Shown here one piece after another: positions 13,956 to 59,791 of a stretch of DNA of 64,000 bases; the first letter of the stretch is position 1; the number at the start of each line of letters is the position of its first letter. Made by a program: the position numbers and the translations under genes. The notes beneath the pieces are model-generated. The model saw only the letters and a program-made list of their open reading frames with translations, made no database searches and was not told the origin of the DNA. This DNA comes from Moniliella sp. 'wahieum' (lineage: Eukaryota), in contig RSEE01000093.1 in NCBI GenBank assembly GCA_003971905.1, forward strand, positions 124,001-188,000. Reading direction: 5' to 3'.

Positions 13956-15093
13956 GGTGGGTAGACAAGCGGATAGCAAAGGTTGGTGGTGGGTGGAACG
14001 CGGGAGGGGTGGAGCAGAGATCATCCGCCGCAAGTCAGCTAGTCAGCGGTTCGGCCTGGATCATCTGTCGATGGGTGCTGCTAGGGGATCTGTAATGCAT
14101 GTAATTGCTAATTGCCCGAAACACAGCGCACGAATAGGCAGCCCTGCTGGCCAACACGACGGCAGTGGTGGTCGGTTTGGGCGCCACCCTCGGTTTCCTC
14201 ATCAAACTTCCACACAGTCCCTGTGCGGCTGGGTCCAAGCGTTTGCCTCCAATCAAAATAGGGTTGAGAAGCACAGCGCCAGTGTGGGGTCTAGCGGCCA
14301 AGGACTGGTCTGTCTTCGTCTGCTCTGGTGCCAGCAGCCTCATTTGCGCAGTAAGACTCCGCTGCCGCCCTCGGGTTATTTAGATCGTAGATTAGTACGT
14401 GGCGTTTTGGGTTGACGTGTGACGCGTGACGCTTTGCGATCAAGTTGATCGCCGTCCCACTTGGTACTGGCGGGTGTCGGAGCCTGCCGGAGTTGCCAGA
14501 GCTGTCCGACGTGGATGATCGATGATCGATGATCGGCAAGCCGGCGCAACTTGACGCGTGACGCGTGACGGTGACGCTTAACCGGCATTGCAGGGTGCCT
14601 TTGCGTCTGATTGCGTCACACGTTCAATTTTGGACTACCATACCAGTTTGGTCGTCAGGCATCACGTGACGTGACGTGACGTTTCACATCACTAGTCAGG
14701 ACCTTTTTAATTTTGCAACTTTCCCTCGGGGCTAGCGGGGCGTCCCAGCGTCCCCTGGCGTCTCACATGCACAGTACCACGTAACTGGTCACTTGGTCAG
14801 GTGGTCACCGGTCGCTTTGCTGAAGCGCTGAAGGCTGCAGGTGATGGCGTCGCAGTGGCAGGCTGTCCATGTTTGCCCCACATCCCACACATCTGGCACT
14901 GGGGAACTAAGCTCTACGGTGGCCTGTGCCCCTCCAACCCAACGCTGCAGTCGTGTTTTGGCCGGCGAGGGTGGTACAGCGCTCAGCCCAGTTTTCACGC
15001 CCCACTCTTTCATTGCCTCTCCCTTCCCCATCTCGGTGTCTCTTTTCCCCACACCACCACCCACCCGCCTCTCCCTTCCACCTGCAATCCAAC

Positions 15094-15796
15094 ATGCCCA
15101 CCGGCGAAGCCCCCCCAACCTCCTCCGCACCCTCATGAACCAGGTAGCCGACTTGGATCTCGACATCATCCCTTCCGAGGATGGATCCAAGGTGGCCGAC
15201 CTTCTGGTCCCTGGGCTGGAGATGTCCAAGATCTTTGCCATTGTGCGCCGATCGCATTTATGAGTGACGCGAAGCTGGTACTGACCCCGCTCCTCTGTGT
15301 GATTTTTGTGCATTTCAGATTGAATTTGGCTTCCGCACCAAAGGACATCGGGCATTCTCGATGGTATCGAAATGCTTAGCAGGGACGAGGCCAAGAAAGC
15401 CATTGTAAGTTTTTCTTCCTCTGCGGGCTTGATTGCGAGTGGTGTGCCTGACTGGGAACCGGTAACCGTTAATGCCGGTATGATTTGCAGTCGTCGACGT
15501 ATGTGTTTGAGATTAAGCCCGCGTCGGGAGGAAAGTTGGTGCGGTACTGGGTTGACATGCGCAAGACGGGAGCGATGGTTCGCCTGAAGGATGATGAGAA
15601 GCCTCCTGCCCGGCCGGATCTGTTGCTGCGGATCGCAGACCGAGACATGGTTGGACTGGCCACTGGCTCCCAGACGCCCCAGCGTGCATTTTTGGCGGGC
15701 AAGATCAAGGCGAAAGGAAACATTATCATTGGCCTCCGCCTGACCTCCGTCTTATCCCGCGAGCTCAACAAGCTGACTCTCCAAAGCAAATTGTAG
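15094..15796 (+). CDS. SCP2 sterol/lipid-binding domain protein with peroxisomal PTS1
   Basis: Introns ~15243-15318 and ~15405-15490. YWVDMRK..PDLLLRIADRDMVGLATGSQTPQRAFLAGKIKAKGN is an SCP2 signature. Ends SKL*. Confidence 0.88.
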
Positions 15797-16366
15797 CCGA
15801 AGCGGCTTCCTAAGTACGGTCTGCTCCCACCCCCAATGATGAAAGTATCGTTTCCTTTACTATAATTAAACGAAAGTTGCCTGGCTATTAATAGTAGGAT
15901 GGAGGAGGTGAGAGTTCAAGCTACGAGGCCACTATTGCGGACATATCATGTACAGTGCTTCAGCTGCTTATGTGCTGGGCCAACAAGGAGGTGCTGCGCC
16001 TAATCGACCTGCTCATCGACCGGCATGTGTTGCTTGTTAGTGCAGCCACACGACCAACAACCTACAGCACATCGCCTGTTGCTTGGTCCCATGCGTATCA
16101 CATGTCACAGCTGTTGAAAGGAAAGCGCCGAAGCTAAACGGAAAGTTTCATTGTTCCCTGGTGATTTAGTAATGCTAGCTTGTTGCGCTTTAAAAAAACT
16201 AAAAAAAAAAAAAACTCGGCTGACGTAACGGATCGATCTAGCTCAGCCTACTTCTCCCCACCGTCACCACGTGAACGTTCAATTGAACGTTGACTCATTT
16301 AACCGCCACCAACACCGCCACCGCCACCGCCACCGCCACAACAGCAACAGCGTTGCGTTACTCACC

Positions 16367-16970
16367 ATGCCGGCTACCTCCATTGGAAGTCTGGTATCTT
16401 TCGATTACATCTGAGGAGACAACCCCCTTGTCTTCACCTGATTTTGCATCGCCCAGAACCGTGCCGTTCTTGCAGATGACGGTGGTCCTTCCTGTCCTGC
16501 TTGACCGCCCGTGCTGCTCGCCCGCCTATACTCGGGACCCGTGCGGACCCACTGGCGGAGCTTGAACTTGCTTTGGCCGTGCGGGCCCCCGCCGCCACCG
16601 ATGTTAGCGTTGCGGACGATGATGTGCTGCGCCTTCTTGCCTCGCTATCTCACGCCGAGGCATTGCTGCCCCCCAACAGCTCTGCTCGGCGAGCCCTGGA
16701 GCACGTAGGACCCCGCCGCCCGTGTCCGCCTTGCTGCCGATTATTTTCTTCGAGCGTCGTTGGACTCATCCGGTATGGCCAATGCCGTAATTAGCGACCA
16801 CCCAACGAACAATGGTTCTTGGATACTTCACCCCCTCCATGCCCAAGACTTCTTTGATTGGCCGAAACACGTCCAACCCGATTTTCTTTTACGTTGTCGT
16901 TCACACCCGCGTTTGATACTTGATGTTGATTCTTCCTCAAGATGGACCTAGCTGGCTTGCTTCTTCGGAG
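16367..16970 (+). CDS. Possible small hypothetical protein, perhaps with an N-terminal F-box-like motif
   Basis: ATG in CACCATG context. LPPLEVWYL..(FDYI in the adjacent frame) followed by a helical-looking frame ADPLAELELALAV..DDDVLRLLASL. Heavily frameshifted. Confidence 0.3.
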
Positions 16971-17284
16971 TGACCAAAGTCCTCATCTTCCTTGTCTTTA
17001 TTTTTCTCGACAACGCTCCTACATTTTCTGTTTGCGCTTCCTTCCAGAATCTGGAACAACATCGGTGACACCACGTCACCATACCCATACCAGTCTCTCC
17101 TCTACCATTGTCTTCCCTTTGTATTATATGGGATGCCCGCGTTATTGAGTTGATCAATCGATCATCACATAGCTATCGTTATTAGCCAACAATTGGTTTT
17201 GTAGCATCCGCACCGCGTCGGAGATATTGTATCGATTCAAGTAAATGTTTAGAAAGGAGAGGTGGCGGTGGGCGTGAACGTCGA

Positions 17285-18121
17285 TCAGAATCAAAGCTGC
17301 GGTCGAGGTCCGAAAGAATAAGAGCCCGCATACCTGGCGGCATCAACGGCGGGTTTTGTCCCCTGGTCACCTGGACCCGAACGTTTTCCTCTTTCGCGAT
17401 TGTAGAGGCGGGGCGGGGATCGACCATATACCGGAACGGCATCGATACTGCTGCTCCCCCGTAAACTTGAGTTCAGGGTGGTTCACCCACTCCATCTGAC
17501 CATGGCCACGAGTATCGGGCGGGACAGTGGGGGCTCCATCGACGCCTAGATGCACCCCATCTTCCACAACCTTCTTGGTCACGCCTAAGGCAGTATCGGT
17601 GGTCATCTGCACGCTCCCAAGGTGCCGTCCGCCATAGCCGTGCTGACGCAGCGCTGCCGTCCGATCACGAGGAGGATCATCACCGAGAATACCACCAAAA
17701 AGAAGATGAAAAAGGGCCATCACGCGGAACCGCGTCGGAGCCGGGTACCGGAGCCGGGAAGAGAGCAGCGTCGCCCACATCGAGCGGCAACGGCGCACGG
17801 GGATCAAGCAAGCAGACATCCGCCTTGGTTACCCCCCAAGCCGACAAGAGTATCGAATGGCTCGGGGTGAAGACATGGAGTAGCTGAGTCCTCCACAGGA
17901 CCAAAGCCAGGCTCAGGTCGCTGGAGAGCCTGCTCAAGGTCGGCAATGGAGTTTTTGGACAGGTTGGTAAAGTGGACTTGGGTCCCGCGCCCGGCCAACT
18001 TGAGCATGTTGCGATATTCCAGCAGCGCCCAGCGGGGGAACTTGCTCGGCGCATCCGGATCGTCTTCCTCCATGTGTTCGATCACATAGTGGGGACGCGT
18101 CCCTCGTACAAACTTGGACAT
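17285..18121 (-). CDS. SFM1: SPOUT-family protein arginine methyltransferase Sfm1
   Basis: YVIEHMEE..WALLEY; VCLLDP; LFGGILGDDPPRDRT; RHLGSVQMTTDTA; HPELKF; MPFRY; PLMPPGM. Confidence 0.92.
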
Positions 18122-18387
18122 GGGTGCGATGCTGGTTGAAGAAAAAACTGCCTTTGCCCTGTGTAGCTCGAGGGTTGCCTCCGTACGGGCTACCGACAGT
18201 CCATGATCGGTGAGCGATCAGTGACATTCCCCTCTATGAGGCTGTTAAATTTTGACTTGGGCTAGATATGGGACAGTGCAAACTCCGCCGGACACCTGTT
18301 CCGCCCCTATTTTAGCCAAAAACCACCAGTCCTACTTTTTTTATGGTCTCCCCCTCCTCGCCGCCTCAAATCCCCACCAATTCCACC

Positions 18388-18742
18388 ATGGCACAGGGTT
18401 TCAAGCCGCCCAAGAAGCACCGCACCTCAAACAAGAGCAAAGCCAAGGGTAACTCTTCAAAGGGGCCCAAGCGTGGAGGTTAGTCTGCTCGCCCATCCTC
18501 CTTGCCTGTGCTCTTCTCTGACTGTCGGTCTTTTTTTCAGCCAAGTTCATTGCTCCCAAGAAAAAGGGCGCGATCACCGAGGCCCAGATGAAGAAAAGGC
18601 AAACGGCGTCCATCATGAGCAAAGTCGAAGCTGATTTGGCTGGGCGGGCCGGGATGGCGGTCCTCTCACCATTATGAAGAAGATCGCCGACCAGGCCGTT
18701 GCAGCTGACAAGGCAGCAAAAGAGAAGAACAAGAGCAAGTGA
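18388..18742 (+). CDS. Small basic protein, UPF0390/DUF2462 family
   Basis: MAQGFK...KGPKRG, intron 18479-18540, KFIAPKK...SIMSKVEADLAGRAG..PLTIMK; lysine-rich, ~95 aa. Confidence 0.8.
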
Positions 18743-18794
18743 TTGTTATCACTTTGCTGTGTGTTTTATGAATCGCTTTTTTTGACTGCGCCTC

Positions 18795-19608
18795 ATGACA
18801 GTCATACCCATCTATTGCATGTATTCCCTTCTTTCTTTACCATGCATTGCAGAGACGGCGGTCAAATATGGTCTTCCTGTGGGTAGCTTGCCGGGTACGA
18901 ATACCTACGAGTCTGGTCAAATCGCTGTGGATGGCCAAGAAACCGGGAGCCACAAAGTTCCTTCCCTCAATGCACTCCCCAACATGCACTCCTCTTGCCT
19001 CGAGCAATGCATTGCTCCCATCAGGGGCGTGCGCACTGACAATCCTATCCTGGGCGACGAGAAGACACTGACGGTTGTTGCGCGCCCGCTTTGAGCTGGG
19101 CCAAAATCGCACGAAGCCAATACCACATCGCTGAGGCATCGGATGGTCGTTGGGGGAAGACATTAATACGGGAATGGCCGGCGTAATCGAGGAGATTCGG
19201 CTGCCTTAGGCGTACGAGATGCTGGCCATGACCGAGGGCGAATTTTCGGTTGTTCAAGCGGAAATGATATCATGATGAGGTCGCCCTCGCGGCACGTGTT
19301 TCGTATGCGGCTTCAATCCTAACGCACCCGAGATCAGTGAATGGCCTTAGGTGTACGATTGGGAAATACAAACCGCGTACGATGCGGATGCTGAAATGGA
19401 CGTTGACAGAGGCGGATGGAGGGGCGGAGGCGGGGACAGAGGCCCGAGACGAAGGTAGAGCCAGAAGAACCAATCTTTTTGGCCTGTCCAATACAGACGA
19501 CCGATATGAAGCCGAACAGTAAGATGACGATGAAGTCGTTAAAGATGGGTTCGATGAACGTGGGGAGGATGCGCCCAGGTCTCAAGCTCCATGGGTGGCT
19601 ACCCTTTA
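18795..19608 (+). CDS. Possible hypothetical protein with acidic C-terminus
   Basis: ATG with a possible short intron (gtatt..tgcag) and fragmented frames ending in acidic stretches (..YDADAEMDVD.., ..DDEVVKDGFDERGEDAP..ATL*). No family recognised. Confidence 0.3.
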
Positions 19609-19689
19609 GTTGCACTGTTCATCTTTGTATCTGGTGCATCCGAATCTGGTGCACATGTGCATACTAGGCTTTGGGGGGGCGTATTAACA

Positions 19690-20804: not shown

Positions 20805-21129
20805 GGCGGTGGGATGGCGTAGAGGCCAGCAGGGTAGCGCAACGGGTCGTCTGCGAACCCGCTCCGCACGCCCAAAGGCGGGTCGTTGATTAGCACCACG
20901 ACTAGTCTTCGCAGCCAGAGCGCCGCTCGGCAGTCACGTGACATGTGGTGCTCTAACTTGAACCCCCCCTGCTTGCACCCTCCCCCAGCACCAATTTGGA
21001 GTGCCATTATCGCCTGGGATACAGCAATCCAGTGGACGGGTCGTCCTGTGGACACAATAGCCATGGCCTGCATGGTACTATGGAGAGTATAAAACACAGG
21101 ATGGAGAAGGAGAGGGGCCCTAATCCTCT

Positions 21130-21540
21130 GGATTTTTGGCTAATATCGTGGTGAAAAAGCCAGGTCAGGCCAATGGGAAACCACGCACGAAACTCACGCC
21201 GAGAGTTGTCTTTTGACTAAGAAAGTCATGCTAAGTTGGGTTATACGGATAACGAGCCTCCATCTGAACCAATCATGGAAAACTCGGTCATGCGTCTACA
21301 CTTATATCCTAGTACTAGAAGACCACCGGGCCTACGGCCCGGTCAGCTGGGGCTTCGCCCCCAGCTGTGCTGCGGCCACCTTAGCCACCGTTCCACCGTG
21401 TTCCACGCTGGAGAGCGGAATGGTATTCCCCACTCCGCCTTGGGCGGAATTTTATCACCCATGTGCATCCGCCTGGCTGCGCCCGCCTGGAACGGCCGAG
21501 TGGAACGTGCCAGGTGGCATGCTTGTGTAAATTACGTAAA
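21130..21540. ncRNA. Candidate structured non-coding RNA or hairpin-rich element (identity unknown)
   Basis: Consecutive GC-rich stems at 21325-21343, 21344-21367, 21387-21424, 21434-21448 and ~21466-21521. TATAAAA at ~21088. No credible ORF. Confidence 0.4.
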
Positions 21541-21560
21541 GTAAAAAGGGGGTCTCCGAT

Positions 21561-21665
21561 ATAAAAGGGGAGTGGCGCCCCTAAGTAACCCCCGCAAGAT
21601 GAACGGTTAGGTTTAGACGTAGCGTTCCCCCTGTCCCAGCCTTCTTAAGTCTGCCAATGAAATGG
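21561..21665 (+). repeat. Dispersed diverged repeat, copy A (inverted homologue at 38443-38540)
   Basis: GATGAACGGttaGGTTTAGacgtAGCGTTccccctGTCCCAGCCTTctTAAGTCTGcCAA..AATGG aligns by eye to the reverse complement of copy B. Confidence 0.7.
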
Positions 21666-21845
21666 ACGTTCTCTTTAAAGGGGAGATATGCGTGCCATAT
21701 AGCCCAGTTGCCCGAGGCCCCCGGTGCCTCGACAGTACGATGTGGATGCGAGCTGAAATTGAAACATGCGAAAACAGAGGTGGCTATCGACGGCTGGTCT
21801 GCCCTCGGGTTCTCTCTCGTAGCGGCCGTGATGTGGCGGAATGGC

Positions 21846-24800
21846 ATGGCAGAGGCGGAATTGAGAAGTAGGCCCTGCTGGCGGCGATGCGGCCAACACC
21901 ATGAACGAGTCCAGGGCCCAACGACTACGACGACCTGCCTAGCATGGCTTCCGTACTCGACGGCTCCGCCATCCCCCCGAGGACAGCCATGCAGACACAC
22001 TGCGCATTGAGATGCTTGGCGCTGGCCAAGAGGTCGGCCGCAGCTGTTGCGTCTTGACCTACAAAGGTACGCAGCCCCCATCCGTCTCCTCGCTGTCCTC
22101 CGCTTCCAGCCGAGTATACTGACCTCGTCTTCTGTCCCTTCAGGACGGACGATCGTGTGTGATGCCGGCGTGCACCCTGCCTATACCGGTCTTTCTGCCT
22201 TGCCTTTCGTCGACGAGCTTGATTGGAGTACCGTGGACGCCCTCCTCATCACCCAGTACGTTTGCGATCGTGGCTCTTTCGTGGGCCGCACCACAGGCCC
22301 AAGCTGACCCTGTCTCCTGTCTCCCAGTTTCCATCTGGACCATGCTGCTGCCCTTACATACATTATGGAAAAGACCAACTTTAAGGATGGCCAGGTAAAG
22401 TGTACATGACCCATCCCACCAAGGAGGTGTACCGCTTCCTCATGAGCGACTTTCCGTATCTCCAATGCCGGGTCGGATGACCAGCTATACGACGAACATG
22501 AAATGCTCTCGTCCTGGCGGCAAATCGAGGCGGTGGACTACCACCAAGAGGTAAATGTGACGGGTGGTATTCGCTTTACACCGTACCATGCTGGTCATGT
22601 GCTGGGCGCATGTATGTTCCTCATCGAGATGGGCGTCTCAAGATTCTCTACACGGGCGACTATAGTCGCGAGGAGGACAGACACCTGGTTCAAGGTGAGG
22701 TACCTCCAGTCAAACCTGATGTTCTTATCTGCGAATCGACGTATGGTACACGCAGTCACGGCCCACGGCTGGAAAAAGAGCAGCAGTTTACCAACATGAT
22801 TCACAAGGTGCTTTTGCGGGGTGGGCGGGTTCTCCTTCCTGTTTTTGTCTTGGGGCGGGCCCAAGAATTGTTGCTACTTTTGGATGAGTATTGGGCCAAG
22901 CACCCCGAGCTGCATTCGATCCCAATCTATTATGCGTCGGCGCTCGCTCAAAAGTGCATTCGAGTATATCAGCGGTACGTCAATGCGATGAACGACAACA
23001 TTCGCAACCGCGTAAAACGACGCGACAACCCATTCGTCTTCAAGCACATTAGCAATCTAAAGAATCTGGACCGATTTGAGGACCGTGGTCCCTGCGTAAT
23101 GATGGCATCACCTGGTATGATGCAAAATGGTGTATCGCGGGAATTGTTGGAGCGGTGGGCGCCCGACCGCAAAAACGCGATCATCATTACTGGCTACTCT
23201 GTTGAGGGCACTCTTGCTCGTTCTATCATGGATGAACCTGAGGAGATTACGGGGATGAATGGACAGAGGATCCCGCGGCGCTTGGCAGTCGAGTCCATGT
23301 CTTTCTCGGCCATGTGATTATGGCCAGAACAGCCAATTCATTGACGAGGTGCGGCCTGATCATGTGGTCCTTGTTCACGGCGAAGCCAATACGATGAGTC
23401 GGTTGCGAGCTATGCTCCAGGCTCGATACAAGAACCGCGGAGAGGACGTTAAAGTTCACACCCGCGCAATTGTGAACCTCTCTTTCTCACCTTCCGTGGC
23501 GACCGGCAAGCCAAGATCATTGGTTCCTTAGCCCGAAATGAGCCTACCCCGGGGGCAAACGTGGACAAGCTTATTGTCTCCAAGGACTTTGTTTATACCA
23601 TCTTGGATCCAAGCGACCTGCATGACTTTACAGGGTTGAACGTATCGACGATTCTACAGCGTCAAAGGATCGCATTGCACGTGGGATGGGAGATGGTCCG
23701 GTGGCACATTGAGGGTATGTTTGGCCGGGTGGTTGAGGGGGAGGACCTTGAAGGATTCAAGACGCTGCGGGTGATGATGCTGTGGATGTAAAGCAAACAG
23801 GTCCACACGAGTTGGTTCTCGAGTGGGTATCGTCCTTGCCTTCTGACATGGTTGCCGACGCGACCATTGCTCTCTTGTTGGGGTATCCTCGTCTCGCGCG
23901 GCTGTCAAGTTGACTACCAAACCCCATCAACATGGCCATGATCACGAAGAGGATACTAAGGATGAATCCCAAGTAGCTGCGCCAATCTCACCCGAAGAGC
24001 AGACTACGATCCAAGACGAAACCGAGCAAAGACTGGCAGCAACTCCTCATCCATTTAGCGCAGTGGCTCAAGAAAAGCCGGCTCTTGCCATGAAGAGTGA
24101 GACTACAGATGAGGAGGTTGGCTTCGCACATGCTCATCATATGCTCACAAGGACCGAGACGATCGTTGCGATTCTTGAGGGTCATTTGGGCGAAGTGACT
24201 GAGATCACTGTAGGTTCGGGCGTTCTTCCTGGTTGAGCAGGTTCCGAACGAATTTGCCTCGGTTCCTCGGCCCACATCTGTCCCCACGTCTGGTGTTAAG
24301 ACGGAGGAGGAGGCGGATGTTGAGATGACCGAATCTTCTCAGGCCGATCCCAAAGCGACATCTGAATCGGCACCGGCATCTGAACCCGAGCACCCTCGTA
24401 TCACTGCTGCACGGCCTATTGATGCGCTCCAGGGCCCCTCCCGCCTTGCCCTACTCGTTTGGCTCGACGATGCGTGCGCGGCCATTGATGTGGAGCAATT
24501 GGTGATTACGTCGGCTTCGAGCGCGTTGCGTACGCGCGTGCACCGTTGCATTGTCCTTGCCTTACAGGCTCTTACCCCGCTCGCTGACACATTCACCGTG
24601 GACACCCCACTCAACACCAACCTGTTCGCGCCCGCCCCCTAAGAATGCTCCGACAGACGCAGACATGGAAGCGGCGAGCGCTGCGGTTGACGACACGATC
24701 GATGCAGACCCTGAGCAATCGGTCAAGCCGCTCGCGAAGCTGGGAGCGGATGAGCGCAAGTCCTTAACGCCTGGAGATTCAGCGGACAAGTCGATGATCT

Positions 24801-24924: not shown

Positions 24925-25656
24925 CAGGCATCCCCTTCTGGCCCAGGGAGAGGCAACAGGGCTTTGTACCAAAAGACAACATATAAGGCCGATTTGAAGT
25001 GTATGGCATTTTGCGGGGCACAAATGTGTCGGGTCTGCTTAAAGGGTCTTTCGCCTGGGGTGCAATGAGGATAGGGTACTGTGAAGATGGGCAACGTGCT
25101 TGGGGGTGGCAGGGTGCGATGTATATAACCAGTCTGAGGCGCGCTAGGCCATGTTGGACCTGTGGTCAGGCGCTGGCTACGACGCGTAAACGTTTCACGT
25201 GGGATGCCGTAACGCGTCAACGTTGAACGTTGAACGTTTTCGCTGGGAATAGGAGGCACGTGGCAAGTGTGCCACGTTGAACGTTGATGATGCCGGCCCC
25301 GCTCTTGGTGCCCCCCTGTCCCTGAAACGCAGGGCGGTCGTATGGCGTCGCCTCGCCACCATCTCCGTCCCGCATCCCATCCCAGTCTCCACGCAACACG
25401 TGAGTTCATGTTCTTCATCCACAGCTCACTGAAGAATCTGCACGTTCCGCGTTACATCTTCATTACGCCCTGAGCGTCCGCGCACAGGGAACCTCTTCCC
25501 TCTAGCAGAAATTGGCGCTGTTCACATCCACTCACGCACCCTGCTGTGCAAGCGACAGTGGCATGCCCAATCCCTCGTGACAATGCACACGCCCCCTCTG
25601 CATGCGCCTCTTACTAACCTTCTTCCCCCCCTCTTCCCAGTCGACTCCCGCCCTGA

Positions 25657-37748: not shown

Positions 37749-38442
37749 AGCTGTAATGGAAGTCTCTGTGTCGCCCTGTTTTGTCTTTCGATATCTGTCC
37801 CGTCAGGTCCCAAAACTGTAGTTGCGGAGGGAGATGAGGCCTGAGGCTGAGGCTGAGGCCTGAGGGAAAATCAAAGAGTTATTGAGCCGATTGGGTTTTG
37901 ATGACAAAATGTGTTGTGCCTGAAGACAAGCGTTGAGATCATTGAGAACGTTGCACGTTGAGGTTTGAGAAGACACTCAGGATGTTCGAATGTGCATGGT
38001 ACTGATACTAGTAACAAAGTCATCGTTGTTTGTATTCTTGAGTCTGCCCCATTGCCTTCATCTTTCGCTTTCTCTATTGCCGACTTCCCCGCTTTCATGT
38101 CCCTTCCTCTTCCCCCTTTTCTCTCCACAAGGAGTTAGTTCTTCTTCCCGTCCTCACCTCTGTTTTACAAACTCACTGTGGGTAAAACATATCTACTAAT
38201 ACTTGATGCTTACGAAGGCGACGAGAGGGATGCGGCAAGAACGCCAAGTAGCAGGGACGCACACTCGATGGCTGTTCTTTCCTTCTGGTCATGGCCACCA
38301 TGACGATACGGACGAGGTACTGTGTTATCAATACTGCCAACAAAACAAGATGCTTTTAGCACTACACTGTACCAAACTTTCTCAATAATGACTAGTTGTA
38401 GAGATGGATTCTCAGATCCCACTCTCATACTGTAATCATCAA

Positions 38443-38540
38443 CCATTTTGACAGAGCTTAAGGCTGGGACGGAGAAACGCTGGGCCTAAACCGATCCGTT
38501 CATCCGGCGTGTGTGGCTTGTTAGCGCCAACCCTGTTTAA
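38443..38540 (-). repeat. Dispersed diverged repeat, copy B (homologue at 21561-21665)
   Basis: Reverse complement reads GATGAACGGatcGGTTTAGgcccAGCGTTtctccGTCCCAGCCTTAAGcTCTGtCAAAATGG. Confidence 0.7.
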
Positions 38541-39119
38541 GGAACCAGGGAATCGCCAGGAGATCAGTACCTCTGGTGCCCGCCACCCGTTCCTATATAC
38601 CCGAGGAAGAGACATCCGAGCGGTGAACCATCTCCATTGAATATTGAGACTCTCTAGTAGTCAATTCCTTCCGGTTCCCAAGCATCTTTTGCCCGCTGTC
38701 ATGGTGGCAGTGTCCTCGCGTCGGCAAAACCAAGAGGAAACGGTTCTCGTGGGTGCGCCCGGTACATGGCGTCCTTGTCGCATTCTGTTTGTTCCAGCGG
38801 CCGAAAGCAGCCTGTCTCATACTATTTCTACCACCTCCTCAGCGCTCAGCCACAGTGAACTATTTTCCTAATTGAAGTGCCCGTCGCCCACCCCCCAGGG
38901 GACTGACGCAAACTCGTATATCCACTCAGACATCATATACCCCCGCGATTTGATGAAAGTGAATGGAGCGCGCCAATAGAGGGCCTGACCTGCTGATGGC
39001 TTTTCTGGTTTCCTAGTGGTGTCAAGAAGCAGCACTCTGGAACACGTCGATGATCAGCCTTCGGTCTCCTCGTAATGCGTAACGTTTCTTATTTGGTACC
39101 AGTTACCATATACCACAGC

Positions 39120-39995
39120 CGCCTTAAAGCTTAAAGCTTAAGGCGCTTAAGCTCTGAAAATGATATGGTGAGGCCGAGGACAGTAGGTACTAAATGTTGT
39201 AGTGACTAATACGATGATACGAACTATATTTTGTAACTACTACATCAGTCAAGTTAGTCACTAGTCATAGCAACCAATGTGGTGTACATGGCCCCGCGGA
39301 CTTTTGTATGCAGATGTCGAACTTCTTGGCGGCAGAAACCACAGAGGCGTGTTACGTCAGTGACAAAATCAGACCATTGGCTACTTTAATTATCTTCCGG
39401 CTTCACTACTAGGTACTAGTCACTATAGGTTGGTGTACTAGCCCTCCTAACCCTGTGGGTCATACCTTCCTGATGCGTCCTGAAAACTGCTCGGGGTCGT
39501 CTGGCATGCTGCATGCACGTTGCACCCAGATATCAAAAGTCTTGGAATGATAGCACAAGGAAAAAAAGTGTCGCAACGAATTTAACGGCATTATGGGGGG
39601 CGGTTAATCCATGTCACATGTCAAAGTCCTCCATAGGACGGCATCGGGTTGCAGACAGAGCATTTGAAATGCGGGCATACTCGATACCCTCTGCTATCAA
39701 CGCGGGTCACATACTCATGTACTCGTAGAAGAGCTTAGTGCTTCGCAGATCATCGATCATCGATCATAGTAGTAGCACTACTCACATGTCTCACATGTCA
39801 CAGTATTAGGTACTCAGGCGGAGTCTCGCTTGTGTTTCCCCGCACTGCACTCTCCCTCTGTCGGGCATTAACGCGTAACGCATTAATTTGAACGTTCAAC
39901 GTTCAACGACGCACTTAAAAACGTTAACGTGCTTAACGTTTAACGATTTACACTTATCGATGATCGATGATCGATTATCGAACATGCATGATGCA
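39120..39995. repeat. Dense cluster of 7-bp-period TNA-palindrome-TNA micro-repeats
   Basis: TAA-AGCT-TAA-AGCT-TAA, TCA-CTAG-TCA, TCA-CATG-TCA, TCA-TCGA-TCA-TCGA-TCA, TAA-CGCG-TAA, TGA-ACGT-TCA-ACGT-TCA, TTA-TCGA-TGA-TCGA-TGA-TCGA-TTA. Confidence 0.85.
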
Positions 39996-45169: not shown

Positions 45170-46168
45170 GTCTCAACCTTTTTCTCCTGAGGCTGTTGAC
45201 TTTCCCTTTTTTGTCCTTACTTCTCTCCCATTGATTCAAGCTCTCCTCTCCCATGCTCTACTTAGAGCTCACATTTGGGTCCAAAACCAAAGACCATTTA
45301 AATAGTTGAAGTAGGATAGATCAGGGACTCGGAAGCTCACGAAAGGGACTTGATCGGCGACTATACTTGCATCTGACAGAGCGATGGGAACATGCTCCGG
45401 TTGGACACAACGGTGCGCATGAATTTGTTCAACGTTCAGACAAGCCACTGAGCGGAGTCTGGACGTAGCCTAACCCACAGGTAAGGCGTAAGAGAGAGAT
45501 CATCGATCAGGGCGAGTATAGGCTCGCTTGGGCTCGGCCACCCGCCGTCGCCGGCAGCGCACAGCGAGGGTCCAGACCTTTCCAAACCTCGGCTGCTGCT
45601 TACGCCAGCACTGCAAAGGGGGGAGACGCACAATGCAAACGACGGTGGAGCGAGTTTGGTTGGCGTATTGCATGTGCTGCTATTTGCGACCAGAATCGAG
45701 GAGCTGGATCAGTACATTACCAAAGTGCGTTGGATCTTGCAGCAGGACCAAATTGACTGGGGAAAAACTGGCCAGGTGTGTGCAAGCGCCTCGCCAGTCG
45801 CCACCTGCGGCCTACATGATGTGTCTGTGACATGCTACAATCACGCGTCACACAGGGTGATTGGATCGATGATATGGATTTGTGGGAAGGATCCGGCCGA
45901 GGACACTGCCGCTGGGCAGTGCTGGGAGCTAGGCATGTGCAGCCGTGTGCCGCTGCTCCTTCGGCATCCGCGGAGGATCGATGCCTGACGATCGATGATT
46001 CCAGGGATGCATGATGGGTGCGGTGGGCAGCTGCTGCGGCATGCGGCCGTGCGATCATCGATCAGCGATGGATGCAATTGTGCAGATCGTTAGGACGTTG
46101 GGGGGCCAGGGGACTGGGGCACTAGGATATAGGACTGGGCTGGCAAGCGCAGGCACGCGCTGGTGTGG

Positions 46169-46208
46169 ATGATGCATGATGCATGATGCATGATGCATGA
46201 TGCATGAT
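46169..46208. repeat. (TGATGCA)x5 heptamer repeat
   Basis: Read directly; member of the TNA-palindrome class. Confidence 0.95.
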
Positions 46209-46826
46209 GTGCAGATGGATCGACTTGGGTGGGCGGAGCCAGACAGGGGCAGTGCGGGTGCTTACGTGACGCGGGGGTGCGCTCTGAAGCTGAAGAGCAG
46301 CTACGAAGCGCGGGGGCTGCGCATGTGGGCCGGCGTGCGCAGACAGCACGGGCGCTGGCGGGGGTGGTGTGGCGCCGCCTGGCTCTAATAGGTACTCTCT
46401 CAGATCTCACGTGTACATGCATCGCTGCATCCGGTGGTCTGCGCCCTGCCATACATAAGCTGCGTCCGCGCAGCCGCCTCGACAGCATCCGGCCGTGTCA
46501 TCATGCATGCACACACCAGGCCGAGCCAAACGCTACCACGCGCCGAGGACGCAGAATCAGATCCCAGAGACTATAGTTGACCAACTCACTCCTCGCGGGC
46601 ACCGCTTATTAACCTGGGCAGCAGCGCCTAGTCGCATCTGACATCTGACAACCGAGACGCCTCACGCGCTTCTACTTGCATCGGCCGCGAGCGTTACCCG
46701 TCCCCAGCCACTCCTCTTCAACCTTCAGCTTCATTGCCCTCCTCCCCCCCCCCCCCCCCTCCTATCCACCTACTTGTGCCTACTTGTGCCCCTGTTTCGT
46801 TCCACCCGCGCCACCACGGACCAAGC

Positions 46827-47757: not shown

Positions 47758-49585
47758 CGAACCAGCAGATGCAAAGTACCTTCGGATGAGTAGGGCTTGC
47801 TACAACCACACCCTCAATCTCAACCTCCTTATTCGTTCCTTCGTCTCTGCCCCTCTGCTCTCTCGTACTGGCCTCGTTTCACCTTACGTATCTCCCCTCC
47901 ACCTCATCTATCTTTTTCTCAACCTTAAGCCCACCGCCTTCCTCATCCACGCCCACCCTGCCTTTCTCCTCTTACCCTGCCTTTTCAGGCCTTCTACTCA
48001 AATTGTAGGGGGACAACTAGCCATACACGGTCGGCCTACTTTGCCCCCCCCCCCCAAGGACATTTTTTGCGTTGATGCTGGTCAATGCCACCTCTTCTTG
48101 CTTTGTACCATATCGGGTCTGTTTTCTGCTGTGCCATCGTTCGCGTCATCTCTTGGGCACCCATTTCAGTCTTCGCCATAGAGTAGCAGCAGTGGGGCTG
48201 GCGCCTTCAACATTATCGAGCGCTTTCCTTTTTTTGAGCGCGTGTGGCCACGACGGGCGCATCCGAACCGGGGTTGGTCTAGCATCCCGAAAGCTACTGG
48301 CTACTCTCCTCGCGAACGCAAGTTGACCTAAGAAGGGGGAGATGCAGTACATGCAGAATGAATTGAATGACAAAGAGGATGGATAAAGTGTGCACCAAGG
48401 TATTGCGCCCTCGCTCATTGACGCCAAGCACAAAGGCTGGACAAGCTCGCGGACCGCACCCAAACCACCGGCATCGTCCCAAGACTCTTGGGTCTCTGGC
48501 CAGCATGACGACCGGCAACAGTCATGGATGAGCGCAGACGCCCGAAAGCGAAAGGCCGATATGATGAAGCGGTGCTTTTTGGAAGGCCAGGTTCCGCGTC
48601 CTTGGACGCTAAGCGTTAAGAAGAAAAGAACCCCGCCGCCACCCCGCTGGCCCCCTTTTATAGTCGACCGGCCGATTTCCTTCCTTGCTTCTTTTCAAGT
48701 TTCAGTGTCAAATTTCAAAGTACAGGGAAATGTGGCGGCATCGACCAACATTTAATTCCGCTCACGGGGTCTGAGATCTGACGGATGAGTCACCGGCCAG
48801 GTGAGGCACCATTTCCGCCCCCCTATATGCTTTTGCACCGAACCAATCTAACGCGTTGGATCTAGGACCGCTGACTTGCTCAGTACACTCATTCTGAGCG
48901 GCTCAGGGGCGGGACTGGTGGCGGCCGCTCGTGGTGCGACGGAGTGGCATGCACAGTCTCCCTCTCCCAACCGATCGCAGCCAATAGTAGTCTCGTGAGT
49001 TGGTCGTGTGACGACCAGGTTGATGCAGTAGATGATGATCGAGGGGATGATGACGCCGAGGCGGTGGCCTTGTTAGCGATTATCGATCGAATCCTTCAAG
49101 CTTCAAGCTTCAGTGCTTCAGCTGCAGCGGCCCAACAGCAGAGAGGTCCCAAGCCAAAGTCCAGCAGGCACCTCACGCTCCGAGCTGCTCGAGCGAGCTC
49201 CCGAGCTCTTGTGGCATGTGGTACCAGCCAACGTTCAAGTTGGACGTCGCGTTCAACTGAACTTTCGTCCGCGCCAGCCTCCCCACGTCAATTAATTACA
49301 CAGGCGGCTATAAAACACAACACATCGGTGACGGGATGGGTGACTGGCGGTGGCGATGCATGACCGGGTCGCGTGCAATGTGCTGTCCGAAGCGCTAAGC
49401 TAGCGCTAAGCGCCCATCACTGCATCACGCTGCACAGTAGAGCACACCCGAACACACTCGGCCGCCCCACCATCACCCCCATCACCCCTCGCCTTGTTGG
49501 CCATGCCCGGCGACGCCGCCATGCTTCCGCATGCTCCGCACACGCCCGACACACGCGCTGCTGCCGCTGCCAGGTGCCTCCGCCA

Positions 49586-53237: not shown

Positions 53238-53279
53238 CGCTAAGCTCGAAGCGCTAAGCTCGAAGCACTAAGCTCGAAA
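53238..53279 (+). repeat. 14-bp tandem repeat (CTAAGCTCGAAGC.) x3
   Basis: Read directly, just after the stop at 53223; period is 2x7. Confidence 0.9.
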
Positions 53280-54030
53280 CTCTACCCCCCTTCCTTTTCT
53301 CTTTGGTTCTTGTATATCCACCCTATCTTTATGTGTTCAATGTAGATACACATTGTTCCCCTCTTCATCGCCACTGTACTCACACCCGCTGTTGCACTCT
53401 CATCCTTGCTCTGGGAACCGGCGAGGAACCGTGCCTGTGCTCGTAGGTCGCCGGTGATCGATATGATTATGGTCACTCCCACTCCCCACTTGATCGCTTT
53501 TCCCTGTGACATGTGAGGTGTGGTGAGGTGTGTAACATGCGAGGCCTCATGAGGTCAGGCCCCGGTCAGGCTCCGGCCCTCAGGGGCCATCTGATTGCGG
53601 CCAGTTGGCCACCGCGCATCAATCTGAGGCTGAGATGACAGTAGCTTGACGGTGTGCCAACAAAAGTTTCAACGTCACAAGTGCAGCGAACCACCTTGAG
53701 GGATGCGTTGAGCATGCCCGGATGACCGGCTGGGTCTGCTCATCCACGCCGGGATCGCTCAAGGCGATGTGTGATGTTGTTGCTCAGGAGCGGGCGACAA
53801 GCGAAAGGACGCCAACGGGGGCTGTCGACGGAAGAGGGACACGGACAATGGACAAGCGATGGACCCGCGATTGGGGCGCCGAACGGTGGGCGCGGCAGAG
53901 GGGCTGTGCTGCTGCCCCTGGCGGGGCTAGGGTTGTGCTCGCGCGCTGGGCGCTGGCTCCACTTCCAGTATACGACGGACAGCCGATCGATCATGATCGG
54001 CTCTGCTCTGCCACCGCCATCGCCACCGCC

Positions 54031-55940
54031 ATGGACACCGACGAGCAGCTGTATCCCATTGCCGTGCTCATTGACGAGCTCAAGAGTGAGGACCTGGCGC
54101 TGCGCCTCAACGCCATCCAGCATATCGGCACTATTGCCCTCGCTCTTGGCCCCAAGCGCACCCGCGACGAGCTGCTCCCCTTTCTCCAAGAGAGTCTCGA
54201 TGACGAAGATCCTGTTCTCCTCGCCCTAGCCGAGGAACTAAGCGTGCCTTTTGTCGACTACATTGGCGGTGCCGAGCATGCCCACCTGCTCTTCCCCATC
54301 CTCGAAAGCCTAGCTGGTGTGGAAGATGCGCCTGTGCGCGAAAGAGCGGCCGAGTCAATGGCGCAGCTGGTCCGCATTCTCAATCTGGAGCAGCTCGAGC
54401 ACTTCTACCTCCCCTTGGTCCTCAACCTCGCATCGAACGACTGGCTTGCCTCGCGCACCACTTCCACTGCCCTCATCCCCCCGGCATACCCGCTCCTAGG
54501 CCCGGAAGGACAGGCCCAGTTGCGCAAAGCGTTTGAGAAACTTTGCAACGACGACACGCCCATGGTGCGCCGTGCTGCGTCCCGTGACTTGATTGTACGC
54601 ATCTCCTCCTTGGCCTTTTTGCTTGTTTTTTCCTCCTCTTGTTCTGGGAAACTCGAGCTTTCCCCAGGACCCTCCTCGCTGCCGGCGTGACCCGAGGTGT
54701 GAGCTGACTGGTGCCACTTCGTTAGGGCCTGACCAAGGTAATGAACAAGCAAGAGGTTCTAACCGAAGCACTTCCGCTTTGCCGTCGCTTACTGCGCGAC
54801 GACCAGGACAGTGTCCGGTTGTTGACTCCAGAAAATGTCGTGGCTATCGCCGAGGCTCTCCCGAAAGAGGACGCCACGGCAGAACTCTTGCCCTCGGTTC
54901 GCGCCCTGGTGAGCGACAAGAGTTGGCGTGTGCGCTACGTGGCGGCAGACCAGCTGGTCAAGCTGAGCAAAGCCATGGTACCAGAGATGGTCCATACCGA
55001 ACTGGTGCAAGCGTTTGTGCGTTTGTTGCAGGACAGTGAGGCCGAAGTGCGCAACTCGGCTACGACTCAAATTCCGGGGATGGTGGAACTGTTGGAGCCA
55101 AGGATGGTGCTGGCTCGGATTGTGCCTCTGGTGCACGAGCTGGCGGGGGACGCTTCGGCGCCGTTGCGTACCACGCTGGCTCTCCAGGTCGCCGCGTTGG
55201 CCCCCAAGTTGGGCAAGGAAGGGACGATCGAGCACTTGTTGCCCGTCTTTCTTGCGCTGCTCAAGGACGATGACGCGCAAGTTCGGCTCAACGTCATTTC
55301 CAAATTGGAAGAGGTGAACGAGGTGATCGGGGTGGAGCTCTTGTCCCAATCTCTCTTGCCGGCGATTGTGGAGCTGGCAGAGGACAAGCAGTGGCGTGTG
55401 CGCCAGACGATCATCGAGTACATCCCTCTCCTCGCCAAGCAACTGGGCATGGCCTTTTTTGACGACCAGCTCGCCGCGCTCTGCATGAGCTGGCTCGCGG
55501 ACGCTGTCTTTTCCGTTCGGGAAGCTGCGACGATCAACCTGTGCAGACTGACGGAGGTGTTTGGGGTGCCTTGGTCCCAACGTACGATCCTGCCTGAAGT
55601 TATTAAGCTGGCGCAGCACCCGAACTACCTCTCCCGCCTCACCACCCTCTTTGCACTGTCGGCCATGGCAGAGGCGCTGGACAAAGCCACTCTGGCAGAA
55701 ACTGTCCTACCCACCGTGATGCAGCTGGCACACGACCCTATCCCCAACATCCGGTTCAATGTGGCCCAAACGCTTCAGCGCCTCGCTCTCCTTCTCCTTT
55801 CCGAGCCCGACCCGCAAGCAGAGGCAGTCAAACGGTTGGTCCCGACGCTGACGACGCTTAAGGACGACAAGGATGCAGACGTGCGTTTCTTTGCCCAAAG
55901 GGCCCTCGAGGCTTTGCCGGGTACGGTACTGGAAGGGTGA
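54031..55940 (+). CDS. TPD3: Protein phosphatase 2A scaffold (A/PR65) subunit, HEAT repeats
   Basis: LYPIAVLIDELKSED..RLNAI..IALALG..RTRDELLPFL; DDTPMVRRAA; intron 54595-54725; DKSWRVRY; VRLNVISKLE; LAEDKQWRVR; DPIPNIRFNVA; D.DVRFFA. Confidence 0.98.
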
Positions 55941-56120
55941 CAATGTCAAGGTAGATTGCAATTGCTTGGTACAAATGCGAATGTAGGGGAATGATGCGGG
56001 TCTGGTAGAGGGTAGAGGGGGAGAGGGACAGATGAGATGATGATGAGATGAGATGAGATGCAACGAAAAGAGGATTGGGATAATGACAGGAGGCAAAAAA
56101 AGAGCGGAGTAGAGCAGAAA

Positions 56121-59100
56121 TTAGCTTAAACATCCGGACCAAGCACGTCGAGACCAACTGCGGATCCCGAGCTTCAAGCGCTTGCCAGCCCCTTCCGCCC
56201 GTCCAACCACGGCGGCCCACAAAGAAACGGTGGGTGGCAACATGACGTGCCGGCGGACGCAAACTCGAGTCGAGTGCGAGGCATTGACGAATCAGATCGG
56301 CCACATCGCGCAGAGCACCCCCCCCGTCTGGTGCTGTATGCTGGCTCGGCACAGCTTCCAGTGCCACGCGTTCGCGCAGGGTGCACGCGGCTCGAGTACC
56401 GTCCTCGAGCGCCTGAAGCGCCTCCTTTCCGTTCCAAAACGGGCATTCCCCGCAAATCAGAACGTATAACACCACCCCCAACGCCCAAACATCTTGCGCC
56501 GGGCCTTCGTACCTCTCGCTCCGAAGAATTTCCGGCGCGGCAAAATCCAACGTTCCGGAAAAGGTGTCAAAGCGTTTGCGTGGCAAGCGGGGAACGTGCG
56601 CGGCGGAGCCAAAGTCGATCAGTTGGGCATGGCCCGTAGGTGTGAGAATAACGTTTTCGTCCTTGATATCACGATGGACCATGCCCTGGGCATGAAGGAA
56701 GGCCAAGGCAGCCGCCACCTGGCCACCGATCCCACGCACCTGGTTGACACTCAAGCCCGTGGCCGACGCCTCGACAAAATCAAACACATCCTGGCCTTGA
56801 CCAAACCGGTGCATAACCAAGTAATAAAACTCGGCATCTTCAAAAAAGTCGAGCATGCGCACAATGCCTGGGTGGTGCGTAGGGCCGGGTCCGTCCTGAG
56901 CTGGCCGGGGCCGAGCAAAGGCAGAAGCAGGCGTCTCTTGGCGTTTGTCCGTTGGTTGGAGGTGAGGCAGAAGTACCTCTGGGGCCCAAGGGGGAAATTG
57001 GGTGGGGGGATGATAGTCAATCCGACGCAGCTGCTCCATCACATGAATCTCGGTCGGAATGGTCCCCAAGACACGGTGCCGGCGCCAACAATCCGCCAAG
57101 ATGCGGCTTTTGACAATCGACTTGATCACCACTGTCTCCCCTATAACGGGTGTGCCCTCTTGCGTCTTGGGGCGTTCCTCACTGCCGCACGGCTCTCGCA
57201 GCCGCGCAAGGTTGACCACCCCATACGCACCCCGGCCAATTTCTTGAAGCACCTCAAAGTCCCGGATCTTGCGCTTTTCCCCATTGGGAAGAGGCGAGTA
57301 GGGGATTGTAGGTCCATCCACTGCGGCCGGAGTAGCTGGGGGACACGGCTTGGCCGAGGACTCCTCCTCTACCTTAGATAGACCACGAGCCTTCGACAGA
57401 CACACAGGTCGGTGGTGCCCGGCCGGAGGAGATAATGGCAGAGGCAAAGCACAAGAAGCAGAAGGGCTTTGCAATGCGAGGAATCGGCTGAGTTCACTAG
57501 TTGTGGGGGTGCGTAGGACCATACCGCCCTCTGCGCACCGCTTGGCCCGGGTCGGAGGAGACGACACGGGGGAGAGTATCGGGTCAGCACATTCGGGGGG
57601 CAGCACGCCCAGGGTATTGGTCGGATCTTCAGCAACAGCTTGCTGCAGGCGAGCCAGCAGACGGTCAATGTTGAACGTATCCGACGCCTCGCCAAGAGTC
57701 TCACTGGGGCGGGGGATGGGGTGTCGGACGGGGTGGATAGGGAGGAGGTTCGGTGGTCGGCCAGGAGCTCCCCAGGCTTGGCACAACATGCCCCCATGGG
57801 GAGGCTGGGTTGCTCCCCAATAGCGAAGAGGGGGAGTCGGGGTCCAATTCAAGAGGGCAGGGGCGAGGCGTCGTAGCCAATTCGGGCGGGGTCCCGAGCT
57901 GGAGGGTAGGATGCCCTGCTGCGACGAGGACCTGGTACGCTCCATTCTCTGCCAAAGGGTCTGAGTTAGGAAGCGCGCGCTGTGCCGGCGCCGAGGAAGG
58001 ACCAGTGTCGGGTCAGCGGAGGAAGTGGAACGGATTGCATCTAGAGCAGGTGAGAAAAGCCAGATTAGCGTGCCAGATCACAAAAAGTCCTCACTGTCAT
58101 GAGGAACGCACCCTGAAGAAACTGGCGTGAAGAGCTTGGCGCTGTAACCCGGGCCGCACTGGGCTGGATTGAAGGGGCTATGGGAAGTTCTGGTGAAAGG
58201 CCGAGGGAGACGGAGGGCTGAGCAGAGGATAGAGCTTGCCTTGTTCCCGTAGGGCAGACTGAGGGAGAGAAGGATCGCGGCCCATGGAACGAAAGGGTGC
58301 ACACGCAGGCGAAGGGGCGGGAGTCGCAGGCGGTAAGGGTGGGGGAGAGCGGGGGCAGCGCAAGGGAGGGTGGAGAGGGGGGTGCAATCCGATTGAGCGC
58401 CGGCAAAGGAGATGGGCTCGGGGCTGGAACGGGCAGGTCTTGCGAGCGTCGACTATTGGGCACAGCAGTGGATTTGGGAGTCGCATTCAAACTTGGATTG
58501 GGTGTGTCCTGTCCCACATCGTGAGAAAAGCTGGGCCCCAGGGGGGGCTGGCCTGGTGGGCGCGGGGTGGTGAAAGGGCGGACGGAGCGGGCTGTTCAAG
58601 CGTGTCCCTCGATCTGGGCGGGGGGTCGAGAGAAGTGAGGGTGCGAGGGGACGGCAGCGGCGGGTAGAGAGGCGGGGAGGAGATGTCGACGTTGCCGTGG
58701 ATGGTGCGTGGGGTGCCAATGCTCGCCACTCGTCCGAGCAGGGTGGAGGGAGTGGTGGTGCGGATGCGGGGATGATGGCGGGCAAGATGTCGCTGGAGCG
58801 GCCGAAGCTGCGGACCGAGTAGGCGCTGCTGCTGCGGCTCGAGCGCGCCAGCGACGAGGGTCGGGCACATGGGGCGGGGACGCGGGTGCGGGGTGGAGGG
58901 GGCGACGGACCAAGGCGAGGGCGGGGCGGAGTAGACGATGTCAGGGTCGCGCCGGCGAGGGGGCGCAGTGGGGGTGCCGGCGCTGGCAGGCCGGTGTTTG
59001 CTGGCGGCGATGGGGCTGCGGGTGGGCAGGCGGTGGGGGCTGTGCCGAGGGAGGCGGTGCGGGCGGGGTGGGAGGGGCGGCGCTCGGGAAAGGCGGGGGG

Positions 59101-59124
59101 GGGGCCTATTCGTTCGAGCGGCAT
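56121..59124 (-). CDS. PAS-kinase-like (CAMK/PASK group) Ser/Thr kinase with low-complexity N-terminus; ends approximate
   Basis: IGRGAYGVV; VVIKSIVKSRILADCWRRHRVLGTIPTEIHVM (PASK-typical); HPGIVRMLDFFED; HRDIKDENVIL; LIDFGSAA; FDTFSGTLDFAAPE; DVWALGV. Confidence 0.88.
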
Positions 59125-59791
59125 GCCAGCGCAGCGACGGAGGTGGGGGAGGGGAGGAGGGGGGGAAAGGAGAAGAGGAGGACGAAAAGGGGGGAGGAGA
59201 GGAGGACGAAAAAGGGGGAGGAAAAAGAGGATAGCGTCGACGTGCTGGCCAGTTTCTGCCCCAGGCTTCGGGCTGCGGTGTGTGTGAACATGCAATGTGC
59301 TTTGCAGTTGAGAATAGCTTGCGATCTGCGCAGAGGAATCTGAGGCTCTGAATCCGAGGCCGTCTGGGAAAAGTTCAGCCGAGTAGCCGCTGCTCCGCCG
59401 GTGCAATCAGGCTCATCGACCCATCCACCTCTTCGACACGCTCGTTGCCATCACCGGCCTCTGCGCTGCACCCAGGCCGGAGGGGCGAGGACGAGAGCGT
59501 GCGCGTGACTCGCGAAGGGGCTAGTCACCGTGACGAACTCAGTACCGATACTGACTAGGGGGTGACTAAGTAGTGACTCCCATCCAGGCTGCGTTCTGCT
59601 CTCCTAGTCCCTTGTCCCCTAAGCCTAAGGCCTAAGGCTAGGCCTAACCTCTTGCAGCGGCTGCACCAGGGCGTCTGCCTGCCGTCGCCCTGCCCATCAG
59701 TCACATACATCCACACCTCCCGCTCGCCCCATCCACATCCGCTCTCCACTACGCCTGCACATCGCATTTGCATCGGACCATACAGCACCCA

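Follow-up and report, generated by a model that had tools for sequence, protein, structure and literature searches.

Flank-Templated Heptamer Insertions in Moniliella sp. 'wahieum', Probably Excision Footprints of a Hairpin-Forming Transposase

Results

Seven-Base Units with Flank-Copied Palindromic Cores

The intergenic DNA of a 64,000-nucleotide stretch of the genome of Moniliella sp. 'wahieum' (contig RSEE01000093.1, G000:C93:124001-188000; hereafter the window), taken from an assembly of 69.5 Mb in 223 contigs, carried many TNA triplets spaced by a four-base palindrome. The unit was an insertion by which abTNAcd becomes abTNA-cd-d'c'-TNAcd, or the mirror form, with d'c' an inverted copy of the flank. 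These sites are very probably hairpin footprints of some enzyme that duplicates seven bases and, with good probability, excision footprints of a transposase that closes its flanks into hairpins, the agent being a family of elements whose ends start with CACAGTG. As excision scars, they would be unusual in uniformity and scale.

Palindromic cores were found in 56 of the 145 TNA-N4-TNA sites of the window. Shuffles preserving k-lets gave means of 5.5–8.8 such sites for k = 2–4 (maximum 17), and the harshest null (k = 5, shuffled in 500-base blocks) a mean of 19.6 and a maximum of 31. The palindromic fraction of four-base cores was 0.386 between TNA anchors, compared to 0.049–0.061 for ANT, CNG, and GNC anchors, and TNA anchors with cores of 2, 6, or 8 bases showed no palindrome excess in the window. 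All 16 palindromic cores occurred in a larger sample, 13 of them in the window, and the same TNA stood on both sides in 48 of the 56 sites. None of these 48 fell within coding proxies, where 14.4 were expected, and only 2 of all 56 did; the proxies (19.2 kb of Pfam-bearing frames and blocks conserved in an old duplicate of the window) stood in for a real gene annotation. A preliminary description, made from the letters of the window alone, had named 22 example positions, and all carried the pattern, two with a shift of one base (46170 and 49096); enrichment over shuffled sequence and avoidance of coding sequence, which it had put forward as checks, were borne out by the counts above, the latter by proxy.

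The pattern was not confined to the window. One two-unit form had 1029 matches genome-wide vs 9 for its reversed control, and the heptamers recurred in the sister contig C66, which was assembled separately. Single scars occurred at 0.30–0.34 per kb in four subsets, which extrapolates to roughly 21,000–24,000 in the assembly with sister copies counted twice; four sample loci on contigs C1 and C2, chosen near pattern matches and denser (0.59 per kb in the C1/C2 set), were kept out of these estimates. Scars were clustered, with a median neighbor distance of 212 bases vs a mean spacing of 1479. An assembly or sequencing artifact would be in keeping with the many 1–2-base indel differences and frameshifts of the assembly, but most sites were common base for base to separately assembled sister contigs, avoided exons, decayed by point mutation, and were tied to TNA, so that such an origin is next to impossible. 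The heptamer pattern is real and non-artefactual.

According to the preliminary description, only the geometry of the motif is conserved; this understates its regularity, as the core is copied from the neighboring bases. Among 28 isolated same-TNA sites of the window, the core matched the flank on one side in 23, on both sides in 1, and on neither in 4, with chance at 1/16 per side. At a one-sided site, the period-7 stretch is 12 bases long, short of the 14 that a tandem duplication would give. In a 534-kb sample, where TNAcd was duplicated 7 bases apart, the two-base spacer was the inverted flank in 237/392 cases, vs 8/195, 15/273, and 8/328 at ANT, CNG, and GNC, respectively. The middle base of TNA was C or G in 155/196. 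A minor target class, CCA/TGG, was also scarred (16/73 at CCA in this sample, and 2 of the 17 polymorphic first-time events described below). Plain 7-base duplications were considered as precise footprints of the same process and rejected, having no enrichment at TNA. A test on chimeric cores was weak (10 vs 7, p 0.03), with the control much alike (11 vs 11), and was left unused.

Gain of Units in Duplicated DNA

Near-identical sister contigs (C14/C19, C17/C62, and C93/C66) and older duplicates served as natural alleles. The sister alignments totaled 239 kb with 3.4% substitutions. For the window itself, comparison with C66 covered only 3.3 kb; the older duplicate of the window, C12, was dropped from intergenic comparison, as an identity of 69–78% in most blocks was too distant.

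Clean 7-base indels between sister contigs numbered 42. Thirteen carried a 5-base duplication, 12 of which added the inverted flank (p 1.7e-10), and six carried a 6-base duplication, all fitting the flank rule, so that 18 of these 19 follow it. Another ten were whole-unit changes in tandem runs, at least five of them in TNA-palindrome arrays. The 17 first-time events fell at TNA (14), TGG (2), and GTG (1); set against 7,854 substitutions, they amount to about one new scar per 450 substitutions. First events duplicated 5–6 of the 7 bases and added inverted bases, and the whole-unit tandem duplication with which a slippage-born microsatellite begins was not seen among them. In the window, the sites at 39869 and 39889 were filled, each with a unit that C66 did not have.

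Polymorphism between sister contigs gives no direction of change, and multicopy repeats were used to polarize it. At five informative sites, window 38638 among them, the unit was present in a single copy or sister pair and missing from the other copies listed, and the reverse was never seen; one of the five rests on a single outgroup copy. The filled state is a gain from an empty site. No site with an element in one copy and a scar in the other was seen between the copies compared.

Two origins of the pattern had been offered in the preliminary description. In the first, TNA-N4-TNA in intergenic DNA would be selected as a binding site for a protein that reads it. Such selection fits the avoidance of coding proxies and the clustering of sites, and some cores equal known motifs (e.g., ACGCGT), but each unit arises in one step, as an insertion with a core determined by the flank, units occur in decayed retroelement and transposon copies, and there are spacing variants of 8 and 9 bases. 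Exons are avoided by scars because of frameshifts. As an origin, binding-site selection is highly improbable and may be regarded as refuted; later protein use of some sites may still be compatible with the data. The second, an excision footprint or hairpin scar of a TNA-targeting transposon, held up and gained the de novo insertion with flank-templated inverted bases. The PIF/Harbinger label attached to it did not, since those elements have a 3-base TWA duplication, whereas 5–7 bases are duplicated here, C or G predominates as the middle base, and the scars are net +7. Moreover, PIF/Harbinger elements generally excise precisely (PMC4561436). Footprints of the Tc1/mariner type differ as well, as their constant core comes from the terminal bases of the element, whereas here the core varies with the flank and takes all 16 forms.

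Target Length and Tandem Arrays

Besides the 7-base form, in which 5 bases are duplicated, rarer 8- and 9-base forms had 6 and 7 duplicated bases, respectively. The 9-base form, a full 7-base duplication plus 2 inverted bases, was found in 19/187 cases at TNA vs 2/96, 2/319, and 2/365 at three control anchors, and retention beyond 7 bases with P bases was near zero (1/50 and 0/62). As the 9-base forms keep 7 duplicated bases and longer retention almost never occurs, the target would appear to be of 7 bases, NN-TNA-NN.

Among perfect period-7 repeats in the 534-kb sample, 172/356 of those with at least 14 bases and 31/44 of those with at least 21 bases obeyed the rule. Three copies were reached by 31/172 palindromic 7-mers vs 13/184 other 7-base repeats (p 0.002).

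In replication fold-back, the polymerase would switch to its own strand for two bases and rejoin the template at the self-complementary TNA, after which slippage would expand the unit; on paper the product is identical, and no element is required. Whole-unit tandem changes among the 7-base indels (10/42) and near neighbors that share units also speak for it. Yet the equally self-complementary ANT, CNG, and GNC were without effect (0.02–0.05 vs 0.60), the second TNA kept its middle base in 48/56 sites, and the NN-TNA-NN found beside transposon ends would be left unexplained. We judge fold-back to be very unlikely.

A Candidate Transposon Family

The agent is most probably a CMC/Transib-like family that combines CACAGTG ends with a Transposase_21 domain; the window contains one such end at position 38851, directly after the scar at 38839. 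A profile search of the genome with PF02992 found copies on C17, with a sister on C62, and on C34. The end adjoining the Transposase_21 gene on C17 was 97% identical to window 38851-38909, and the gene itself matched PF02992 with an E-value of 8e-14 and 51.7 bits (cut-off 28.6). NN-TNA-NN (T at -5, A at -3) abutted the element in 5/6 independent ends of the CACAGTG family; four of these five targets were perfect odd palindromes, and the sixth end was flanked by TNA and a palindrome. A seventh match was excluded because its terminus was absent. Genome-wide, TNANN-CACAGTGA had 99 matches vs 46 for the control. CACAGTG stood at one end of every copy seen, as expected of the 5'-CAC termini of EnSpm/CACTA elements. 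With no two-ended copy found, a 7-base duplication by this family is deduced from single ends.

The Atlas clusters nearest to the transposase were PF02992 families; a RAG1 cluster ranked 26th. Its predicted structure was of moderate quality (a pLDDT confidence of 68.6), and the six best folds for this model were RAG1, ProtoRAG, and Transib (Z 7.0–5.6, root-mean-square deviation 3.8–6.3, 122–262 aligned residues), with the next unrelated fold at 3.6. No longer relatives of the transposase piece were found, and a sequence search of the PDB gave no match.

The Transposase_21 gene at L112:3950-7490 (G000:C17) was syntenic with L113 on C62 and had one inverted end only; it may be a relic or a domesticated gene. 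A second, distant Transposase_21-like gene, L114 (G000:C34:513400-516700), was 24% identical to the C17 copy, and its ends were not found. CACAGTG termini at L112:1458-1473 and L139 were flanked by TNA and a 4-base palindrome, and look as if one end had been cut, its hairpin opened, and the end rejoined to the element.

Two repeats of the window (38424-38812 and 21309-21680) were tried as the agent and rejected, as both carry the 3' end of a non-LTR-like (LTR, long terminal repeat) multicopy family with 194 genome matches. A longer copy of this repeat in L057 had an open reading frame resembling a non-LTR restriction-like endonuclease domain. De novo scans of the sampled loci for paired inverted ends with a duplication gave no convincing element.

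Features of the Window and Its Assembly

Scars, arrays, and element ends of the window are listed in Table 1. An initial placement of 16098-16293 between convergent genes was a guess and was dropped, as the strand of the neighboring gene is ambiguous.

Table 1. Heptamer scars, arrays, and candidate transposon ends in the window.
Position	Strand	Feature	Remark
14420–14429	.	TGA-CGCG-TGA scar	Right flank matches core start
14516–14568	.	Two short arrays, (TGA-TCGA)x2 and (TGA-CGCG)x2	
14689–14698	.	TCA-CTAG-TCA	No flank match; possibly decayed or chance
16098–16109	.	One-sided scar TCA-CATG-TCA-CA	
16272–16293	.	TGA-ACGT-TCA and TGA-ACGT-TGA	
25210–25287	.	In-phase mixed-core array (CGCG, ACGT, ACGT)	Plus another TGA-ACGT-TGA
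37835–37865	.	Two one-sided TGA-GGCC-TGA scars	6-base variants in between
38174–38187	-	CACAGTG terminus, possible second element	NN-TNA-NN flanked; no partner end found
38636–38647	.	Scar at-TGA-ATAT-TGA in copy of multicopy non-LTR repeat	Gain; 7 bases absent from listed homologous copies
38839–38850	.	Scar TCA-GCGC-TCA-GC	Second half, gc-TCA-gc, is the target site adjoining the element end
38851–38911	+	60-base transposon end starting CACAGTG	Relic; 97% to C17 end; no partner end in window
39125–39151	.	(TAA-AGCT)x2 array	Then 9-base form at 39136-39151 (7-base duplication + 2 inverted)
39256–39267	.	One-sided scar ag-TCA-CTAG-TCA	
39612–39623	.	One-sided scar tg-TCA-CATG-TCA	
39750–39802	.	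(TCA-TCGA)x2 array and 9+7-period TCA-CATG array	C66 has one TCA-TCGA unit more
39869–39880	.	TAA-CGCG-TAA-CG	Filled in window, empty in C66
39889–39977	.	ACGT and TCGA arrays	ACGT array at 39889 one unit shorter in C66
40345–40822	.	Three one-sided scars	40347 GGCC, 40718 AATT, 40813 TCGA
45427–46064	.	Scars at 45429, 45500, 45841, 46055	
46170–46207	.	(TGA-TGCA)x5	Longest array in window
46398–46409	.	One-sided scar tc-TCA-GATC-TCA	
48708–49112	.	Scars at 48708 and 48772	(TCA-AGCT)x2 at 49096
53505–53516	.	One-sided scar tg-TGA-CATG-TGA	Upstream of HEAT-repeat (PP2A A subunit-like) gene
59624–59637	.	cc-TAA-GGCC-TAA-gg	Match on both flanks

The genes of the window were fungal and intron-bearing. 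A PP2A A subunit-like exon had smut fungi as its best named relatives, at an identity of only 57–58%, and the source organism is basidiomycete-like. Sister copies (C14/C19, C17/C62, C93/C66, and C108/C98) differed by about 3.4% substitutions, one pair showing no difference over 10 kb; for older duplicates, including C12 vs the window, identity was 69–78%. This suggests two layers of duplication or hybridization in the assembly. Throughout the assembly, conserved genes included, sister copies differed by many 1–2-base indels and frameshifts, suggestive of long-read errors left uncorrected. At 48389-48620, a 234-base block was 96% identical to the C12 duplicate, with neighboring blocks at 69–78%, and was also matched by C40; it may represent a conserved RNA or result from a recent conversion. 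Contigs C14 and C19 also differed by insertions that had TG...CA ends and 5-base duplications (L043:6683-8234, L048:8592-8785, L065:5499-6368, and L059:3405-3642); these are probably LTR-type elements or solo LTRs.

Discussion

A Proposed Flank-Hairpin Route to the Scars

An element would integrate at ab-TNA-cd with a 7-base stagger, duplicating its target. To judge from the product, the transposase would then, on excision, close each flank into a hairpin precisely at the border of the element; hairpins of this kind have been described for hAT, Transib, RAG, and MULE (PMC5499845). Artemis cuts hairpins open chiefly at +2, which leaves a 3' overhang of 4 bases (PMC2175297), and a host nuclease acting by analogy would open these hairpins 2 bases past the tip, giving the 4-base 3' overhangs cd-d'c' and b'a'-ab. 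With one overhang kept and one lost, abTNA-cd-d'c'-TNAcd or its mirror would result, the product that is observed, at 7+2-2 or net +7; incomplete trimming would give the rarer 8- and 9-base forms. This route is proposed because integration followed by flank-hairpin excision yields exactly a 7-base duplication with inverted flank bases. The new second TNA is the center of a perfect odd palindrome, on which elements would probably land again. At a palindromic target, the overhangs would be fully cohesive and each revisit would add one in-phase unit, slippage probably helping.

Relation to Known Transposases

The scars resemble V(D)J coding joints, with their P nucleotides, and Transib and RAG excision in their inverted, flank-copied bases and in the even palindrome at the joint, mainly of 2 bases, equal to the +2 opening. 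The palindrome of RAG joints likewise centers between two bases. Candidate ends start with CACAGTG, the heptamer of the recombination signal sequence, and the fold predicted for the transposase is nearest to RAG1 and Transib, though at Z scores (below 8) too low for a clear match. Unlike in those systems, there are no N bases, one product dominates, and it is inherited at tens of thousands of sites. The target duplication of Transib is 5 bases; here the 9-base form shows 7 duplicated bases and an NN-TNA-NN target.

Fungal EnSpm/CACTA (CMC) elements have in common with the candidate family the Transposase_21 domain and 5'-CAC termini, and differ in that a 7-base duplication with a TNA core is deduced here; footprint data for CNIRT6 and CNEST are not given in the accessible parts of their descriptions. 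Pack-CACTA elements leave varied footprints (PMC6379663).

Ac/Ds elements of the hAT group also leave short deletions and palindromic insertions after flank hairpins, with short P tracts as in Candida albicans, but they have an 8-base duplication, and in plants, budding yeast, and C. albicans the palindromes of their footprints center on the complement of the border base (PMC5873905); the scars described here have a 7-base target, a center between bases, and far greater uniformity. Within hAT, where 8 bases are usual and 7 are found in hAT7, the 7 bases proposed here would fit hAT7 only. The chemistry might accordingly be the same and the agent another: a hAT7- or Kyakuja-like 7-base duplicator, several families together, or a domesticated nuclease that has lost its mobile element, with the CACAGTG family merely sharing the target. 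Both hAT7 and Kyakuja duplicate 7 bases in other basidiomycetes, although their accessible description mentions neither a TNA preference nor footprints (PMC12730594), and the very high ratio of scars to elements and the dead appearance of the transposase copies found would suit this alternative. On the other hand, scars here center between two bases and not on the complement of a border base as in Ac/Ds, and CACAGTG ends sit exactly at the predicted site. The marker domains searched for these groups, PF05699 (hAT transposase) and PF18758, had no match in the genome, but the controls were equally silent, so this counts for little. Overall, another agent seems unlikely.

Numerous small intergenic 10-bp repeats of Ustilago maydis have been suggested to be transposable element footprints (PMC4081816). 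They are the printed counterpart of the heptameric repeats of smut fungi that the preliminary description mentioned, although their sequence is not visible in the accessible text. Like the present scars, these repeats of a smut fungus are small, numerous, and intergenic and were read as footprints, and TNA-N4-TNA is also 10 bases long; in contrast, the accessible text gives no mechanism, palindromic-core rule, or evidence of empty and filled sites. In the openly accessible literature searched, no description of the flank rule was found, and this does not establish its absence from print.

Points Against the CACAGTG Family and the Hairpin Route

Several observations weigh against these assignments. 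All transposase copies found were relics (the C17/C62 pair and the distant C34 copy); the C17 and C62 copies have His at the nearly invariant first Asp, so that intact catalytic residues were not found in them, and about 1 Mb examined yielded no complete element bounded by two ends and a matching duplication. Inspection of the large insertions listed between sister contigs revealed no terminal inverted repeat ends. The scars exceed the roughly 50 excess CACAGTGA ends several hundred-fold, so that this family is only a candidate source of the active enzyme. The fold scores lie below 8, where the tool warns of a common arrangement, and the CMC elements CNIRT6 and CNEST have 2–3-base duplications (PMC12810828, PMC12730594). 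As for the scars themselves, 13/42 of the 7-base indels had duplications of at most 4 bases and are unexplained; plain 7-base duplications were not TNA-enriched (59/392 vs 70/195, 82/273, and 82/328 at ANT, CNG, and GNC); and neighbors within 100 bases shared a unit in 11/104 cases (null 2.4, with no excess beyond 100 bases), which is not fully explained.

Implications

In a bolder picture, a transposase of the RAG/Transib type, acting on CACAGTG ends and on a TNA-centered target of 7 bases that has not been reported before, would be a hit-and-run mutator that very frequently inserts and excises elements, strongly favors its own palindromic scars, and leaves tens of thousands of heptamers and palindromic motifs in gene-flanking DNA; the enzyme would possibly be domesticated, and the same process would perhaps lie behind the 10-bp repeats of smuts. 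Taken as a whole, this picture is doubtful.

The scars would document, to the base and across the genome, how hairpins made by a transposase are opened and rejoined in a fungus, and would provide indirect evidence that an EnSpm/CMC-type transposase cuts via flank hairpins, as RAG and Transib do. They would also offer a concrete route from transposon traffic to new tandem repeats. At about one scar per 450 substitutions, scarring is a major mutation process in the non-coding DNA of this organism, and the simple flank rule makes the old footprint suggestion for the 10-bp repeats of smut fungi testable.

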